From the IMG/VR virus record IMGVR_UViG_3300036793_000098: a DNA stretch of 20,000 nucleotides, one strand, 5' to 3'. Below the pieces are notes generated by a model. That model was not told the DNA's origin. It saw nothing but the letters and a program-made list of their open reading frames with translations, and did no database searches. Made by a program: the position numbers and the translations under genes. Below, in pieces: positions 13,451 to 20,000 of this stretch (the first letter of the stretch is position 1; each line of letters opens with the position of its first letter). This DNA comes from an uncultured virus (IMG/VR IMGVR_UViG_3300036793_000098). Taxonomy: Duplodnaviria > Heunggongvirae > Uroviricota > Caudoviricetes.

Positions 13451-14290
13451 TTAGGCGGCTAGACGGCTCTTGCGGAACTTCAGATCCCGCAACTTCGCCT
13501 TGGCCAGTTCGCTCTGAGACGGGGCATACCGAGTGGACGCGGCCGGCTCGGTTTCCGGGACCTCAGCTGGTTCTACTTCAGGGTCGGCGCCATGAGTGGT
13601 CTCAGCCGGCTCATCACGAACGACGTCGTCCAGCAGCTCAGCGAGCTCTGGGCGGAACTTGGTGCGCCGGGCGATCGCTTCCGGATCGCCACGGTGGCGC
13701 AGTGCGGTGGTGATGGAGTCCCGCACGCCGGCGTCGGTGGACTCGTAGGCAGGGAAGGTCACCGGAGACACCTCGATGAGCTTCGCCTCACGAATTACCC
13801 GCACCTCAACCTCTGAGGTGCCGCCGTCGGCACCGCGGACCTCTTCGGTGGTCCAGTCGTCCTTGACGACCTGGAAACCGAAGCTCATCCCGGTGATGTT
13901 GCCGTTACGCAGGTTCGCCACCAGGTCATTGACGTAGGACAGGCTGGTGTCGAGCTCCGAATCCACGGCTAGGCCGCGCAGGTCTTGGGACAGCCGCAGC
14001 GTGCCGGCCGACACCCGGGACACCACGTGCGCGGAGTCGTGGTCGATCAGCATCCGGGCGTCGCCCTCGGCGATCGTCTTGGAGAACGCGCCGGGGGCGA
14101 TCTCCTCGAAGAACCCGAACGTCTGCGGGTTCCCGATCGCCGTCCTTGAGTTGAACACCGCGGCGTGACCACCGAAGCGGGGGCCGACGTTCTCACTGCC
14201 GGCATCAACGGACACGGACGCGTCGGACAGAGTGAGACTGCGACGCTCTTCACCACTCGGCAGGCTGCGAAGCATCGCCGATCCCTTCAC
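13451..14290 (-). CDS. HK97-family prohead (capsid maturation) protease
   Basis: GHAAVFNS, LIDHD (catalytic His), GMSFGF (catalytic Ser) and LIEVSPVTFPAY motifs. Alternative ATG start at 14275. Confidence 0.95.
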   Translation of the reverse strand: MKGSAMLRSLPSGEERRSLTLSDASVSVDAGSENVGPRFGGHAAVFNSRTAIGNPQTFGFFEEIAPGAFSKTIAEGDARMLIDHDSAHVVSRVSAGTLRLSQDLRGLAVDSELDTSLSYVNDLVANLRNGNITGMSFGFQVVKDDWTTEEVRGADGGTSEVEVRVIREAKLIEVSPVTFPAYESTDAGVRDSITTALRHRGDPEAIARRTKFRPELAELLDDVVRDEPAETTHGADPEVEPAEVPETEPAASTRYAPSQSELAKAKLRDLKFRKSRLAA

Positions 14291-14565
14291 TAGTCGAGGT
14301 ACGGCACGAGCTCGGTGGTGCCCGTGGTCCGATCGACGAAAACTCCGCCCGGGAAGTCCACGGCGGGCAAGATCTGCGTTTCTGACGCGCCGGCGGGAAG
14401 GTTGATGAGCACCTGAAGCGCGCCAGCCGTCGAGGTGCCGTTACGCAGCACGACCTGCGCTGCCGCAGCTGCGGTTTCTCGTATTGAGTAGCCCACCAGC
14501 TCGCAGCTTCCGGTCACCGCCTGCACATCGGCGGTGCCTGCTGCCACAACTACGCAAATAGCCAT
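14290..14565 (-). CDS. Small beta-rich hypothetical protein between portal and protease
   Basis: 91 aa, GAGGGG RBS; stop overlaps the protease start. Confidence 0.7.
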   Translation of the reverse strand: MAICVVVAAGTADVQAVTGSCELVGYSIRETAAAAAQVVLRNGTSTAGALQVLINLPAGASETQILPAVDFPGGVFVDRTTGTTELVPYLD

Positions 14566-14584: not shown

Positions 14585-15832
14585 TTATCCATCAGACGGG
14601 CCGAGCGACGAACCGCCGAGTACTTTGTCGGAGCCCATCGGGGCATTGACCGCGTTCGGGTTGATCGGCTGCAGGTACACCTGGCCGGCACCGTTGGGCA
14701 GCGGCGGCAGATCTTCCAGGTCGCGGATCTCATCGACGTTGTAAGCGCCCATCTCCCGCATCACCCGGTAGTACTCAGCCCGGGCGATCGAGTCACCGCG
14801 CAGCAGGCTGTCGATGTCGTAACGGGCCTTCTGGCCGGCCGGGAGCAGCTCCTTGGTGATCCGCTGCTCGGCCGGGGCCAACCACGTCGGGTGCAGATCG
14901 AACTGGTTGAACCCACGGGCCTGCTGCTCAAGGCCACTACCCCACGAAGTGGTCTTGTCGGTCTGGTACATCAGGTACGGCGGGATACCGAAGAACCGGG
15001 CGAGCTCCGTGATCTGAAAGTCGCGGGACTCGAGCATCTGCGCGTCGTCGTTGGGCATGACCAGGGACTGGAACTTTGCCCCCGAGTCCAACACCGCTAC
15101 CCGGTGCGCCCCGTCGATGCCGGAAAACTTCTCCGCCCACCGGGCCTGCAACGTTTCGGCCTGAGCCTGGTCCAGTTCAGCATCGGTCTGCAGCAACCCG
15201 GACAGCAGGTTCCCGGAACGGAACAGTCTCGCGGCGGTCGCTTCCGCCGCCTGCGCCATCCCGATCGCCTGCGCGGCCATCCGCACCGGCGACACCCCGA
15301 TGAGCCCGTCATAACCCAGACCGGGCACGTGGAAGATCTCGTTGGGGGTCATCGGGGTCACCGTGCCGTGCTCGTCGGTGACCTTGAAAACCTTCCCGCT
15401 GGGGTTCTGTGGGATCGACTTTGCCTTGCCCACCTGCACCCGGTTCGGCAGCAGCGGGTTCAGCCAGGCGACCTGACCGCCGCGCTTGTACACCTTCTGC
15501 GAGTAGGCGTTGCCCCACAGGCAGCGGTGCACCGCGTTCAGCCGCCAGAACTCCAGCGGAGTGAGCTCCGGGTGCGGGTCGTCGAGGATGGTGCCCTCAA
15601 CCGGCTTCTTCGTGGCGATGTCCACCGCCATCAACGGCAGCGAACCGGCCAGTCCGGACACCAGCGACGTCGCCCGGTACACCGCCGACATGTTCATGGC
15701 CGTGTACTCAGTGACCGGCACACCGGAATCGGTGGGTTGACCGCCGAACAGGCCCAGAAGTGACAGGTTGGTCAGCGGAACGGCCGGGTTTTCGATGTTC
15801 GCCCGACGCTCTTTGATTTTGAAGAGGCTCAC
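14585..15832 (-). CDS. Portal protein, HK97 family
   Basis: AVYRA..L.SG...SLPL, LWGNAY, EIFHV.G.G.DGL.G.SP, DAQMLESRDFQI.E.ARFFGIPP and LLRGD...R..YY motifs. Confidence 0.97.
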   Translation of the reverse strand: MSLFKIKERRANIENPAVPLTNLSLLGLFGGQPTDSGVPVTEYTAMNMSAVYRATSLVSGLAGSLPLMAVDIATKKPVEGTILDDPHPELTPLEFWRLNAVHRCLWGNAYSQKVYKRGGQVAWLNPLLPNRVQVGKAKSIPQNPSGKVFKVTDEHGTVTPMTPNEIFHVPGLGYDGLIGVSPVRMAAQAIGMAQAAEATAARLFRSGNLLSGLLQTDAELDQAQAETLQARWAEKFSGIDGAHRVAVLDSGAKFQSLVMPNDDAQMLESRDFQITELARFFGIPPYLMYQTDKTTSWGSGLEQQARGFNQFDLHPTWLAPAEQRITKELLPAGQKARYDIDSLLRGDSIARAEYYRVMREMGAYNVDEIRDLEDLPPLPNGAGQVYLQPINPNAVNAPMGSDKVLGGSSLGPSDG

Positions 15833-16004: not shown

Positions 16005-17597
16005 TCACCACAAGTTGGGTACTTTCCGCTTGGCCAGGGAGCCGTGTTCGATGGCCCAACCGCGGGCTTCGTAGGCCAGCAAGGCCGCCATGAACGCCGA
16101 AATGGACTGTGCGTGGCTCTTTTTGACGATCCGCTGGTAGTGCTCCGGCTGCCCGGGGACGCGTTCCTCGGACGTTGAGCGCCGTTTTCCGTTGGCCAGA
16201 GCGGCCCCAGCGGCGTGCATGGTGAGGATTTCCGTGCCGTCGTGGGTCAGTTCGTCGCCCCGATGGGCCGTTTGGAACCGTTCCACGAGCTGATCCATGC
16301 GCAGCTCGGAGTTGGTCCACAGTTCGTAGACCTTTTTCGGGTATTGACCGTCCCAGGTGTTGACCTCGGTCTGCCATCCGGTCGGCGTGCAGAACATGGC
16401 CTCGACTTCGTAGGCTTTGAACGCATCTCGTACCGCTTGGTGGACTTCATCGCGCGGAACCTGCCACTCGGGCTCCCCCGGGGCTCGTTCCCACGTCCTG
16501 AGGTGGTAAATGCGGCCGTCAGACAGCCGTGAGGCGCACAAACTGGTCGCGTCCCGGTTCTGGGACCCGTGGAAGCCCAAAGCGACCTGCTGACGCTTCT
16601 GAAGCGGCTCCGAAGAGTCCCGCTGGGCCGTCCACTTGATCATGTCGACGGCGTCACGCGAGCCGACCGTGACCTCGTTGAGATAGAACCGGCGAGACTC
16701 GCCCTCACCAGTGCTCGGGTCACGGATCTCGTCCATGATCCGCTCTAGACGGACCCATCCGCCGTTCTCGATGGCCGAATCGCCGTACACATGGAGCAGT
16801 TCGGCCCGCAGCGCCTGGTCATCGTCCAAGTCGACGCGCACTCGAGGCTGCCGATAGTCCAGGAACACGCCCGGAGCCTTGGCTTCCCAGGTCATCTGAG
16901 CTACTGAGCGCTCCGATGGGTCGTAGGCGTTGGTGAGCTCCATCCATCGGCCATCCATGCCGGCCAGGCCGCGCTTCATGGTGCGCGCCAGGTTCAGGCC
17001 GCCGCTGGATTCGGTGTAGAGGCCGGACTCAGTGAAGGTGGCGAAGGTGATCCGGGCGCCCAGTCGGCTCTTCGCGGCCGCCGTGACCGGCTCGATACGG
17101 CCACCGTCGGGCAAATTAACCCTGGTCAGGCCCACATCGAGGCCCGGGGTGTTCGCGGCCGGCCCCTCGGACAGCATCGTGAAGATCGGGCGGAACGTGT
17201 TGTCCACCTGATCTTCAGAGTTGGCGGCGCACTGGATCCAGGGCGTTGACATCGGGGCGCCGACAGGCTCCCCGCTCGCGTCCCAGCCGGCGAAGCGCAC
17301 CGGTCCGAGCGCTTGAGCACACGCCTGTGCGGCGGCAAGTGGATCTTTTCCGCTCTTCTGTGGTCGCACCAGAAGCGCGCCGTAGTAGACGAACGCTTGG
17401 CTGCCCATCTCCGGGCGTGCGTTCGGCTTGAGCTGGTACGACTTCATCAGGTGCCACTGCTGCTCAGACGTGAGCAGGAACGGCTCGCCCCGGCGGGGGC
17501 CATCCGGGACGATCAGATTCGCTTCGATCCAGTCGATCACCGTGAAGCCCAGCGTCGGGAAGGCACCCGGGCCGCCGTCTCCCCCGTTCCAAGGCAT
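16005..17597 (-). CDS. terL: Terminase large subunit (ATPase plus apparently degenerate nuclease domain)
   Basis: TLG..VIDWIE, PF.LT.EQ, Walker A RPQKSGKD, AANSEDQ, LTNA coupling motif and RRFYLN; located upstream of the portal. Confidence 0.93.
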   Translation of the reverse strand: MPWNGGDGGPGAFPTLGFTVIDWIEANLIVPDGPRRGEPFLLTSEQQWHLMKSYQLKPNARPEMGSQAFVYYGALLVRPQKSGKDPLAAAQACAQALGPVRFAGWDASGEPVGAPMSTPWIQCAANSEDQVDNTFRPIFTMLSEGPAANTPGLDVGLTRVNLPDGGRIEPVTAAAKSRLGARITFATFTESGLYTESSGGLNLARTMKRGLAGMDGRWMELTNAYDPSERSVAQMTWEAKAPGVFLDYRQPRVRVDLDDDQALRAELLHVYGDSAIENGGWVRLERIMDEIRDPSTGEGESRRFYLNEVTVGSRDAVDMIKWTAQRDSSEPLQKRQQVALGFHGSQNRDATSLCASRLSDGRIYHLRTWERAPGEPEWQVPRDEVHQAVRDAFKAYEVEAMFCTPTGWQTEVNTWDGQYPKKVYELWTNSELRMDQLVERFQTAHRGDELTHDGTEILTMHAAGAALANGKRRSTSEERVPGQPEHYQRIVKKSHAQSISAFMAALLAYEARGWAIEHGSLAKRKVPNLW

Positions 17598-17752
17598 TAC
17601 GCCTCCTCGGGGGCCGGCTTAGATCGCAGCTCGCGGGGCACGTCCTGACGGTCTTTCCATACCCGCAACTCGCGGAGCCTGCGAACGTCGGAAACGGAGC
17701 GCACACCCCGTCTGAGCAGCGCGAAATATTCCTCGCGCTCCGCTCGGGCCAT
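17597..17752 (-). CDS. Hypothetical 51-aa basic protein, possibly similar to the portal C-terminal motif
   Basis: ATG lies 2 nt after the upstream TGA and its TAA overlaps the terL ATG (TAATG), so it is coupled at both ends. Confidence 0.6.
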   Translation of the reverse strand: MARAEREEYFALLRRGVRSVSDVRRLRELRVWKDRQDVPRELRSKPAPEEA

Positions 17753-17754
17753 GG

Positions 17755-18054
17755 TCAGTTCGTGGTCGGGGTGTAGAGCTGGCCGGACATCTTGGCGTTC
17801 GGGACAACCTGCCACACGCCGTTGTTGAACCCGATCCAGTCGCCCGGGTTGATCGAGTACACGTCGTTGTTCCAGATGAACAGCGCGGTGTTGGGAGCAG
17901 CGGTGGTGGCAAGCAACTGGTTGGTGCCGCCGAGCACCGCCGACCAGTCCGTATTAAACGTGGTCGAGAACTGCGCGACGGTAACGCCGGTCGACGCGTA
18001 CTGGGTGAACTTGTAGATCGGCGTGTTGGCCGCGAGGAAATCAGAGGTAGCCAC
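17755..18054 (-). CDS. Hypothetical protein (99 aa, Thr/Asn-rich, PGDWI motif)
   Basis: AGGAG RBS, GTG start, strong GC3 codon bias. Confidence 0.8.
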   Translation of the reverse strand: MATSDFLAANTPIYKFTQYASTGVTVAQFSTTFNTDWSAVLGGTNQLLATTAAPNTALFIWNNDVYSINPGDWIGFNNGVWQVVPNAKMSGQLYTPTTN

Positions 18055-18062
18055 AACAACTC

Positions 18063-18329
18063 CTACGGGACGGGGAACGGGGCGGGCGGATCGGTCAGGT
18101 CACGCACACGCTGAACGGTGATCGGCTCCCCGTCGCGGACCCCGTCCTCCAGCCACACGATCTGGTTCTGCGCTCCGTGGGCGCGACGCTCGATCCAGTG
18201 CGTCAGCAGCACCTCGGACGGGTCGATGCCGTGCTGGGTGAACCAGCCCTGCCACAACGTGACGTGGTCCGGGCTGTCGTGCTGGACGTCCTCGCGGAAC
18301 CAGTCCCGGACGTTGTAGGCGGGAGGCAT
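18063..18329 (-). CDS. Hypothetical protein (88 aa, W...HGIDP..V motif)
   Basis: TGATG-coupled to the upstream gene; strong GC3 bias. Confidence 0.75.
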   Translation of the reverse strand: MPPAYNVRDWFREDVQHDSPDHVTLWQGWFTQHGIDPSEVLLTHWIERRAHGAQNQIVWLEDGVRDGEPITVQRVRDLTDPPAPFPVP

Positions 18330-18715
18330 CAGCTGTCACCCATGAAGGTCCGGAGTTCCTTGCCGTCCAGGTACAAGTAGTGCTCGCACTCCAGCTGCTC
18401 TAGCTCAGCTTCCGCCGCGGCAACACCAGTAGTGTCGACGTAGACCTTGATCGGCTCGTCACTCTCGCCGGACTGACAGGCCGCCTTCAGTGCCTCAACC
18501 TCAGCGATCGCGTCCACAACCTGAGAAAAGTCCACCTCAATGGTCATCTTCGAGTCCTTCAGCGCCCCCAAGAGCGCCTGGAACTCCTCGACCTCAAGGA
18601 TCTCGGGAGTCAGACCGCGGTCTAGCCGGGCGACTGCGCCGAACAGGCGTTCTGCGTTAGCCGGAGAGTGGAGCAGATGGCGGGTCTCGCGCCACGACCG
18701 GAACCAGCGGAACAT
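18329..18715 (-). CDS. Chimeric protein: YefM-antitoxin-like C-terminal helix fused to tape-measure-derived segments (128 aa)
   Basis: TGATG-coupled at both ends. aa 7-34 resemble the YefM C-terminus, and the remainder aligns to the N- and C-termini of the TMP in this window. Confidence 0.8.
   Translation of the reverse strand: MFRWFRSWRETRHLLHSPANAERLFGAVARLDRGLTPEILEVEEFQALLGALKDSKMTIEVDFSQVVDAIAEVEALKAACQSGESDEPIKVYVDTTGVAAAEAELEQLECEHYLYLDGKELRTFMGDS
18481..18594. repeat. Diverged direct repeat of tape measure segment 7731..7844
   Basis: Ungapped hand alignment gives 91/114 nt identical at an offset of 10750 nt, and 31/38 aa identical. Confidence 0.95.
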
Positions 18716-19146
18716 CAGGCGGCTCCGTCCGGGTCCACTGCCTTCAGGCGGAGCCGTGAGACGGGGGCCATCTGTACGTCCGGCATCTCGTCGTCCGCGA
18801 TCTCCCAGTCCAGCGACTTCATGGCGCGTGGGTTGCGGCCGAGGCGGTCCTCGAGCTGTCGCAGCTCGGCATGCATCTGCGCCGAGGCGACAGTGGCCTT
18901 GTGCTCGTAGCGCAGCGCGACAGCCACGTCCACGTAGCGCGCGATGATGTCCTCAATGTGCATACGCACCCAGACCTTGGCCTGTGGAGTGCGCCAGAGC
19001 TTCTGCCACAAGATCTCGTGGAACTCAGTCGCCGCTTCGCCGAACGACCACTCGGGGATCGGGCCGTCGTAGCCGTCCAGCGGGAGCTTCGGCGTCGGGA
19101 GGTTCCGGCGCAGGCGCTGGCCCTCCGGTTTACGTGGTGCTGGCAT
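18715..19146 (-). CDS. terS: Terminase small subunit (actinophage type)
   Basis: GGAGG RBS before ATG 19146. The pattern P.P.....RRN...LP..G..GP.P.W...W..LWRTPQA..W...ELRQLEDRLG..P..M..L.WEI is typical of actinophage TerS. Confidence 0.85.
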   Translation of the reverse strand: MPAPRKPEGQRLRRNLPTPKLPLDGYDGPIPEWSFGEAATEFHEILWQKLWRTPQAKVWVRMHIEDIIARYVDVAVALRYEHKATVASAQMHAELRQLEDRLGRNPRAMKSLDWEIADDEMPDVQMAPVSRLRLKAVDPDGAA

Positions 19147-19936
19147 GTGCCACCTCCCTGGCATTCCTGGCTAGAGCCAGGTAGTCCGCGGCCTTTAGCA
19201 AACGCGTGACGTCATCCCTGAAAAATCCAAGACCTACATTGCAGGACTTGCATAGAAGTCCACGAATGCAGCTCCCGCAAGACGCAGCCGCCGCGCAACA
19301 CGAATGATCGTGGTCTACGTGGTACCCCTCAGCTAGATCGTCGCCACACGCGGCGCACGAACCGTCCTGAGCCGCCAGTAAGGCGTCTAACTCCTCGCGG
19401 GTCGTACTGTGCTGGGACGCAACGACGCAAACCCGGCACATGTGCATCAACCCATCCCGGGAAGCAACATTCCTGCCGAATTCCGCCTCCGGAGCCCACC
19501 TCGCGCACCTATGGCACTGTTTGTTGCCGCCCTCATCGCGCGCCAAGGAGGGGCGCGGGCGCACTACAGGGCCCCGACGCAGCCGATTAGCGCGATCTTG
19601 ATTCCTGCTCTTCCGGTTCGTACAGGGGCGGCACGTGTTCATTAGTCCATCGAGCCTGGCGGCGTCACTGCCAAAGGAGTCCTCTGCGAACCAGAGGCGG
19701 CATAATGTGCACCGCTTGTTGCCGTTCTCATCGCGCTGCGCACCCCCGGTGCGGGGCTGGTTCTTCCCGGCAAGCCAGTTCCGCTCACGCTGTCTCTGAG
19801 CGATGCAAGGGCGGCACTTCCTCGCTAGCCCATCGGGCTTACGAGCATCACGCCCGAATACGGCCTCTGGACGCCACCGGAGACAGCTCGCGCATCGCCT
19901 CAGGTCATTCGCGCTTAGTTCCAGGGAATGCGCCAT
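19130..19936 (-). CDS. Endonuclease VII-domain (His-Me finger) protein with three N-terminal CxxC...CxxC zinc-ribbon repeats
   Basis: C-terminal Q.G.CAAC...HVDHDH.CC....CG.CIRGLLC..CN.GLG.F.DD...L..A..YL; GGAGG RBS; more A/T-ending codons than neighbouring genes. Confidence 0.9.
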   Translation of the reverse strand: MAHSLELSANDLRRCASCLRWRPEAVFGRDARKPDGLARKCRPCIAQRQRERNWLAGKNQPRTGGAQRDENGNKRCTLCRLWFAEDSFGSDAARLDGLMNTCRPCTNRKSRNQDRANRLRRGPVVRPRPSLARDEGGNKQCHRCARWAPEAEFGRNVASRDGLMHMCRVCVVASQHSTTREELDALLAAQDGSCAACGDDLAEGYHVDHDHSCCAAAASCGSCIRGLLCKSCNVGLGFFRDDVTRLLKAADYLALARNAREVAHASTT

Positions 19937-20000
19937 CGCGCTAGCGCCTCCCTTGATCTTTTTAGTTTGGGAACCGTACAGACCGTTAGAAACCGGGACG

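Follow-up and report, generated by a model that had tools for sequence, protein, structure and literature searches.

How does a tailed phage cut its DNA for packaging when its large terminase (TerL) has lost the residues expected to do the cutting? The question is raised by a stretch of 20,000 nucleotides from an uncultured virus of the Caudoviricetes (IMG/VR record IMGVR_UViG_3300036793_000098; the whole stretch is called the window below), which encodes on its minus strand, at positions 16005–17597, an HK97-type large terminase of 530 amino acids that we call TerL1. An earlier note, made from the letters of the window alone, had read three catalytic Asp residues of TerL1 as replaced, and had suggested that the phage packages DNA that TerL need not cleave, delegates the cut to another nuclease or depends on a helper. 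To our knowledge, textbooks hold the RNase H nuclease of TerL to be universal among tailed phages that package from concatemers, the phi29-like exception needing no cutting, and we know of no RNase H-fold terminase that works without its carboxylate triad. The phage is a temperate HK97-type cos (cohesive-end site) siphovirus of soil actinobacteria, and TerL1 is very probably its packaging motor only, with the DNA cut in trans.

In HK97, the catalytic centre of TerL (gp2) consists of D302, D388 and D471, with K463 reaching into it (PMC9410871). In TerL1, the first of these positions, at the end of strand β1, is His343 (codon CAC, 16569–16571, minus strand as for all TerL1 features); the second, at the end of β4 and matched to D388 by motif, is Thr404 (ACG, 16386–16388); and the third, at the start of the last helix, is Ser500 (TCG, 16098–16100). 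The translation (P0001) contains VALGFHGSQNRDAT, MFCTPTGW and QSISAFMAALLAYEAR, and a profile alignment with HK97 gp2 places H343 on D302, S500 on D471 and K492 on K463. Codons, peptides and alignment therefore agree that all three Asp residues are replaced, as the earlier note had stated. The family consensus that it had given is likewise real: 39 relatives with Asp at all three positions (D/D/D) show ALGFDGSRSRDAT, LFADPYxWQ and xIDAxVAAILAYxARG. Lys492-Lys493 (16119–16124) is kept both in these relatives and in those that, like TerL1, lack the triad.

The rest of the protein is that of a packaging ATPase with a nuclease domain. The Walker A segment RPQKSGKD (residues 78–85; 17343–17366) carries K81 and K84, which align with HK97 K57 and K60, and the Walker B catalytic Glu is Glu190 (17028–17030; HK97 E154); R78, Q80, K81, G83, K84 and E190 are invariant in 68 TerL1 sequences from both groups. 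The residue before Glu190, at the Walker B Asp position (T189 of T189–E190; 17028–17033), is Thr throughout the family, including the D/D/D relatives. TerL1 matches PHROG large terminase families (E 1e-66, 3e-42 and 1e-21), while Pfam returned no match for it and, in the PDB, only 6z6d was found by sequence, matching weakly at the N-terminus. We judged retention of the fold by superposing an AlphaFold 2 model built with 68 homologues (mean predicted local distance difference test score, pLDDT, 90.3). Its top structural match is HK97 TerL, 6z6d (Foldseek E 1.8e-21; Z 27.4 over 438 residues); the P74-26 ATPase superposes with Z 20.8, and residues 313–513 superpose on the G20c nuclease with Z 18.0 (root-mean-square deviation 3.0, 176 residues aligned). 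By these scores the model has a complete RNase H-like fold. Thus, a two-domain fold, the Walker residues and a position between terS and the portal gene are all present and the three acidic metal ligands are not: TerL1 is a terminase homologue and the motor part of one, not a complete terminase nuclease.

The loss is shared by a whole clade. The best 120 homologues were taken for alignment, and the 110 of 480–600 amino acids were kept, ten intein-bearing or truncated ones being dropped. In every relative at least 61% identical to TerL1 (63 of 63, the query included) the triad Asp is absent from all three columns, and in every relative at most 60% identical (47 of 47) all three are present. Within the clade, column 343 holds H in 51 sequences, I in three, Y, F and T in two each, and R, Q and L in one each; column 404 holds S in 37, T in 22, N in two, and F and A in one each; column 500 holds S in 61, with one A and one gap. 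The same division appears among 92 IMG/VR loci: 22 are non-D and the other 70, of which one is cut short, are D/D/D. Such a division lies far beyond chance. On a tree rooted with the terminases of Kromp, Kalimba, VWB and HK97, all four with Asp at the triad positions, the non-D sequences form one clade (Shimodaira–Hasegawa-like approximate likelihood-ratio support 100), reached by a single change. Only five of the 530 columns separate the two groups: the three triad positions, together with 427, where Pro has become Trp, and 428, where Thr has become Leu, both just after strand β5. Trp427 (16317–16319) is specific to the clade (W in 60 of 63; P in 43 of the 47 D/D/D sequences).

The domain that lost its triad has not been released from constraint. 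The ratio of nonsynonymous to synonymous substitution rates (dN/dS) in the nuclease domain is 0.054–0.073 between the window and three related loci (L001–L003; dS 0.47–0.64) and 0.017–0.025 among those three loci, which is not above the value for the ATPase domain; across both domains it spans 0.02–0.07. Because the loss is clade-wide, dN/dS of the nuclease domain is low, and the fold and the ATPase motifs are intact, the loss is selective and decay is excluded on this comparative evidence. This bears out the earlier note, which had argued for selective loss and had named superposition on HK97 TerL and per-domain dN/dS among the checks to make: the superposition is close, the profile alignment places H343 and S500 on D302 and D471, and neither domain shows relaxed selection.

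Where, then, is the DNA cut? We read genome ends as the starts and ends of assembled contigs. The window is the left 20 kb of the genome, and its last position, 20000, is the left genome end; the motif TGTACGG (19974–19980) lies 20 nucleotides inward, and together (19974–20000, minus strand) they make up the left half of cos. In minus-strand orientation the window opens with CGTCCCGGTTTCTAACGGTC followed by TGTACGG, and five distinct related contigs (L001, L003, L008, L011 and L012, the last identical to L013 from another sample and counted once) likewise start exactly 20 nucleotides before TGTACG. A second assembly of the same data, which is not independent, also stops at 20000 with no loose end. 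The D/D/D relatives have a homologous site, 19 of 70 distinct locus starts carrying [TC]GTAC at an offset of 14–16, after CTCGC. At the other end, two relatives (G003 and G004) both terminate in GGCG..TGAC, and two more (G002 and G034) are circular assemblies that span the end junction. These ends indicate that the DNA is cut at a fixed, ancestral cos-type site beside terS and is not permuted. Precise ends at the ancestral cos site, in phages whose TerL triad is gone, therefore point to cutting in trans.

Some further features of the ends were seen. The distance from the end to the motif is 20 nucleotides (to TGTACGG) in the clade versus 13–15 (to [TC]GTAC) in D/D/D relatives such as L056, L058 and L077, for which an insertion between the two cos motifs and a shifted cut are alternative explanations. 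In G002 (L020, about 730–830), 130–230 nucleotides before the end junction, there are four to five direct copies of GACCGGTCACTGAT, and the right end of G003 (L122) has three direct repeats of GTGGATCA; these repeats near the right end are possible candidates for small-terminase binding sites. GATCAAG-like motifs flank the end junction on both sides.

The partners that might make the cut lie outside the window, and we looked for them in relatives. The open reading frames (ORFs) of these genomes were called by GC content at third codon positions, a crude procedure that missed the HNH endonuclease gene of the complete relative G002, which was recovered by six-frame family search only; absences in gene content, both in the scans of G002 and in the comparison of five clade genomes with nine D/D/D genomes, are for this reason weak evidence. 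Two nucleases were found in the relatives, an HNH protein and a second terminase, TerS2–TerL2, and all sufficiently complete relatives keep both. HNH is the ancestral partner of this terminase family and TerS2–TerL2 is confined to the clade. That the genome of the window carries both is inferred from these relatives.

The HNH candidate is a protein of 110–140 amino acids, with a zinc ribbon and an HNH domain, present in four of five genomes (G002–G005) by six-frame search with PF01844. Its gene is directly upstream of terS1, the small terminase gene of the window's structural module, in G006 and G032, and 3–7 kb before the right end in G002–G005. The clade proteins are orthologous to the HNH proteins encoded beside the terminase genes of D/D/D genomes (33–40% identity); PF01844 occurs in 16 of 24 D/D/D records at E ≤0.01, and in 11 of the 24 above its cut-off. 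In eight sequences from both groups, all from relatives, residues D83, H84, C105, C108 and N109 of the D-H and CxxCN motifs are invariant, and dN/dS is 0.15. Against HK97 gp74, profile comparison found no significant similarity (hhalign probability 1.6%, 12 columns around DHIxP). The family thus belongs with HK97 among HNH-assisted cos phages, the likeness between its HNH protein and gp74 being limited to the Pfam HNH domain and gene position. Staphylococcal and lactococcal cos phages reportedly need both TerL and an HNH enzyme, for which work by Kala and by Quiles-Puchalt, both of 2014, is said to be the source. For HNH-dependent cos phages a model has been proposed in which HNH makes one nick and TerL the other, and packaging HNH enzymes assayed by themselves gave no sequence-specific cutting (PMC12967558).

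The second candidate, TerL2, is by its sequence a T4/Mu-like (Terminase_6-type) large terminase. In G002 it is a protein of 500 amino acids (P0121; phrog_38, 'terminase large subunit', E 3e-49). The Walker A Lys, the Walker B Asp and the three acidic nuclease residues are intact in the six genomes that encode it, and all 118 homologues retain the catalytic residues (dN/dS 0.12). A helix-turn-helix ORF resembling a small subunit (TerS2, 143–171 amino acids) lies upstream in all five genomes examined. TerL2 occurs in six of nine non-D records (G002, G003, G004, G005, G031 and G034, the last a circular contig of 69,366 bp that was binned with a Nocardioides metagenome-assembled genome), the other three being fragments of 18–38 kb that are 32–55% complete; it was found in none of 24 D/D/D records, nine of which are at least 97% complete. 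In the comparison of five clade genomes with nine D/D/D genomes, TerL2 was the only non-structural family present in 5/5 clade genomes. That comparison cannot isolate a compensating gene, since the two groups have little in common beyond TerL1, portal and protease. Ku was considered as a clade feature and dropped, being found in 2 of 32 records (G002, L019:16282–17067, minus strand; G005, 39878–40405); Ku-encoding mycobacteriophages have very short cohesive ends. The closest cultured relatives of TerL2, 33–37% identical over the full length, serve Microbacterium and Streptomyces phages as their sole TerL; MiniFlayer and Mulchroom, which are satellites, likewise carry relatives at 33–37%. Where a terminase of this type is the only one, it adjoins an SPP1-type portal, whereas the window's clade has an HK97-type portal, which fits TerL1 having been kept as the docking motor. 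Complex prediction for TerL1 with TerL2 scored 0.00, which is no evidence either way.

The following mechanism would accommodate these observations. TerL1 would have been reduced to a translocase that retains its ATPase, its RNase H-like domain and a gene position between terS and portal, its two-metal centre being gone. Concatemers would be cut in trans at the ancestral cos beside terS1, with HNH and TerL2 sharing the cut: TerL2 would supply the strand nick surrendered by TerL1, HNH would keep its own, and portal-bound TerL1 would then receive the cut end. The nuclease domains of HK97 TerL make a ring under the portal that contacts DNA during translocation (PMC10359639), which accounts for strong selection on a catalytically dead domain. 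The parts of this scheme differ in strength. We regard a motor-only TerL1 and cutting in trans as very probable; that TerL2 takes part in the cutting we put a little short of an even chance; and the full arrangement, an HK97-type TerL docked on the portal as motor and an acquired TerS2–TerL2 acting with HNH as the maturation nuclease at the old cos, is offered as a tentative model that may well be wrong in some part.

Several observations weigh against a role for TerL2. Its association with triad loss is a single evolutionary event, so the split of six records to none is not independent evidence, and the clade has its own capsid, tail and other genes as well. The genome ends lie beside terS1 at the ancestral cos, not beside terS2, and TerL2 is about 37–40 kb distant, in a leftward operon beside the integrase and in a region rich in accessory genes. 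Moreover, the triad has been lost elsewhere. Among the 150 best family representatives in a library of 1.84 billion proteins, 127 are D/D/D and two belong to the window's clade; about 12 more, all full-length, align well at the motifs but have Asp replaced (for example by VDT, SDT, SNA, IND, ANF or VNQ at the triad) and require five additional changes on the tree. The nuclease centre has been given up repeatedly in this HNH-associated TerL family, in six or more independent events, at least five of them outside the window's clade; a family-wide partner such as HNH may then suffice. Members of these other lineages, all outside the window, are P0254, P0257, P0272, P0275, P0282, P0297, P0315, P0333 and P0362. 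The P0254 group forms a populated clade of the [V/S]-D-T type, its contigs 43–46 kb long; 25 of the 120 relatives listed are non-D/D/D. Its largest contigs (42.9–46.3 kb) coincide in length with no TerL2 contig, which is weak evidence. The other triad-less lineages are represented in IMG/VR by fragments of 7.5–15 kb, and a search of cultured phages found no kin of them more than 45% identical.

The recurrent loss in an HNH-associated family therefore favours an account in which HNH alone makes both cos nicks, bound to the TerL1 ring as gp74 is to HK97 TerL, with TerS2–TerL2 doing another job, for example interference with competing phages or satellites, or the packaging of other DNA. This account also draws on the orthologous HNH proteins with intact motifs and the homologous cos site in both groups, on the remoteness of TerL2 from cos in an operon next to the integrase, and on gp74, which binds TerL and is essential in vivo (PMC13595911). 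We nevertheless judge this main rival rather unlikely. The triad is kept in the 127 D/D/D representatives and in all 47 and 70 D/D/D relatives sampled, though HNH is common there, so HNH alone usually does not free TerL from cutting; the account leaves unexplained a second terminase held under purifying selection in every sufficiently complete clade genome; and it has to reckon with the lack of sequence-specific cutting by isolated packaging HNH enzymes cited above. An active site remodelled within TerL1 itself, for example from His343, Asp349 and the Ser/Thr hydroxyls, could draw on the conservation of His, Ser/Thr and Ser in 51, 59 and 61 of the 63 clade members and on the retention of Asp349 and Lys492/493. 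Such a centre is very improbable, since 12 of the 63 have I, Y, F, T, R, Q or L at position 343 and four have N, F or A at position 404, a variation out of keeping with a catalytic role.

Two possibilities remain. If genomes were unit-length, protein-capped or otherwise pre-formed, TerL1 would resemble phi29 gp16, a packaging ATPase whose nuclease domain is dead (PMC7672431). G002, however, has PrimPol, helicase and exonuclease genes for replication; it also encodes RusA and a serine integrase, and the integrase implies circularisation. Scans of G002 (103 ORFs against Pfam, 71 against PHROGs, from the imperfect ORF calls) found no terminal protein and no protein-primed polymerase, and with the same reservation about ORF calling no protelomerase turned up. 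The search for further nucleases and for end-protecting proteins that the earlier note had called for had, in relatives, a positive outcome for the former and a negative one for the latter. The assemblies that run through the end junction, the ends at a cos shared with cutting-competent relatives and the full nuclease fold, unlike the reduced phi29 domain, also speak against DNA that needs no cleavage. We consider this suggestion of the earlier note extremely improbable. Dependence on the terminase of a helper phage, or a decaying prophage with relaxed selection on terL, could find some encouragement in the TerL2 relatives of MiniFlayer and Mulchroom. The relatives of 67–71 kb carry full virion, lysis, replication and integration modules, so that dependence on a helper is not indicated; selection is strong on both TerL1 domains, and the contigs end at cos as packaged DNA does. 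We rate this pair of alternatives as highly improbable.

One candidate cutter does lie in the window. The earlier note had named the adjacent EndoVII-family protein (19130–19936, minus strand; PF02945, E 6.7e-18) as a possible stand-in for TerL. Its idea that cutting is delegated holds in general, while this choice of nuclease does not: PF02945 occurs in two of five related records, where it sits elsewhere, and is missing from the complete G002, and as a conserved cutter the protein was rejected for its absence from this site in L001, L003 and G002. It is an accessory gene, with the look of a mobile or accessory insertion: only in this phage does it come first after the genome end, and in the closest relatives, L001 and L003, no gene separates the end from terS. 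The protein has three Cys-rich N-terminal repeats, and its gene overlaps terS by 35 nucleotides.

The genes around TerL1 are all on the minus strand and make up an HK97-type head module, in the order EndoVII-family gene, TerS1, four small ORFs, TerL1, portal, S78 protease, HK97-fold capsid protein, and connector and tail genes. TerL1 docks on the portal (14585–15832, minus strand; PF04860, E 4.5e-80), which is of HK97 type. The module's small terminase, TerS1 (149 amino acids; 18715–19164, minus strand), is found in synteny upstream of the TerL1 gene at 13 of 16 related loci. It matches PF25673 (Terminase_7) at E 1.1e-4 with 22.7 bits, under the cut-off of 27, and phrog_226, labelled 'minor tail protein', at E 2.7e-15; in this TerS1-like family a small terminase has probably been mislabelled and the label propagated. 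The upstream gene of phage VWB is also labelled 'minor tail protein'. Four small ORFs with no function assigned (72, 99, 88 and 128 amino acids; 17597–18715, minus strand) separate terS from terL in the window, and terS directly adjoins terL in L009–L011. An ORF of 91 amino acids between portal and protease (14290–14565) has a paralogue upstream of terL in L012 and L013.

TerL1 itself varies in composition among clade members. Relative to L006 and L014 it is mosaic, with dN of 0.25–0.32 in the ATPase half and 0.03–0.07 in the nuclease half (L162 was also compared), and the C-terminal half of TerL1 in G034 is nearly identical to that of the window; these patterns in the sequences suggest recombination between the two domains. 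Inteins interrupt TerL1 in several clade members (P0016, P0021, P0030, P0040, P0041 and P0049; loci L004, L005 and L015), seen as proteins of 870–916 amino acids or as split tblastn matches, and they match PF14528 and PF05204; in L015 the portal seems to bear one too.

Among known systems, the window's phage resembles HK97 with its gp1/gp2 and gp74. The two share the TerL fold and profile alignment, the types of portal, protease and capsid, and ends beside terS, and in relatives of the window a small HNH gene lies beside terS or a few kb before it, across cos, as in HK97. They differ in that HK97 gp2 has D302, D388 and D471 where TerL1 has H, T and S, and in that the window's clade additionally carries a second terminase pair. 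The parallel with phi29 gp16 lies in an RNase H-derived C-terminal domain that is catalytically dead and yet kept in a packaging ATPase; that domain serves DNA binding in the motor and has lost a strand and helices (PMC7672431), whereas TerL1 keeps the full fold. Furthermore, phi29 packages protein-capped, unit-length DNA and uses pRNA, in contrast to the cos-type ends of the window's clade. In the staphylococcal and lactococcal cos phages, with Skunavirus HrdP, two nucleases are proposed to act at cos with one nick each, HNH being essential (PMC12967558); as that text has it, the TerL nuclease is kept there, and in TerL1 it is lost. Neither a cos phage with a nuclease-dead TerL nor a two-terminase arrangement of this kind came up in our search of open-access papers and bioRxiv.

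What might have driven the change is suggested by immune sensors such as Avs3, which read active-site residues of TerL (PMC13601566). With the nuclease outsourced, 'immutable' active-site residues of TerL may have become mutable, and losing the triad might have let the phages evade defences that sense terminases. Under purifying selection, the TerL nuclease was given up in an entire clade of cos phages and, it appears, in several more lineages of the family. These phages offer a natural separation-of-function mutant for asking which protein makes which nick in HNH-dependent cos packaging, and a possible case of two terminases cooperating within one phage. For those who annotate phage genomes or predict the type of their ends, 'TerL present' does not imply 'TerL cuts'.

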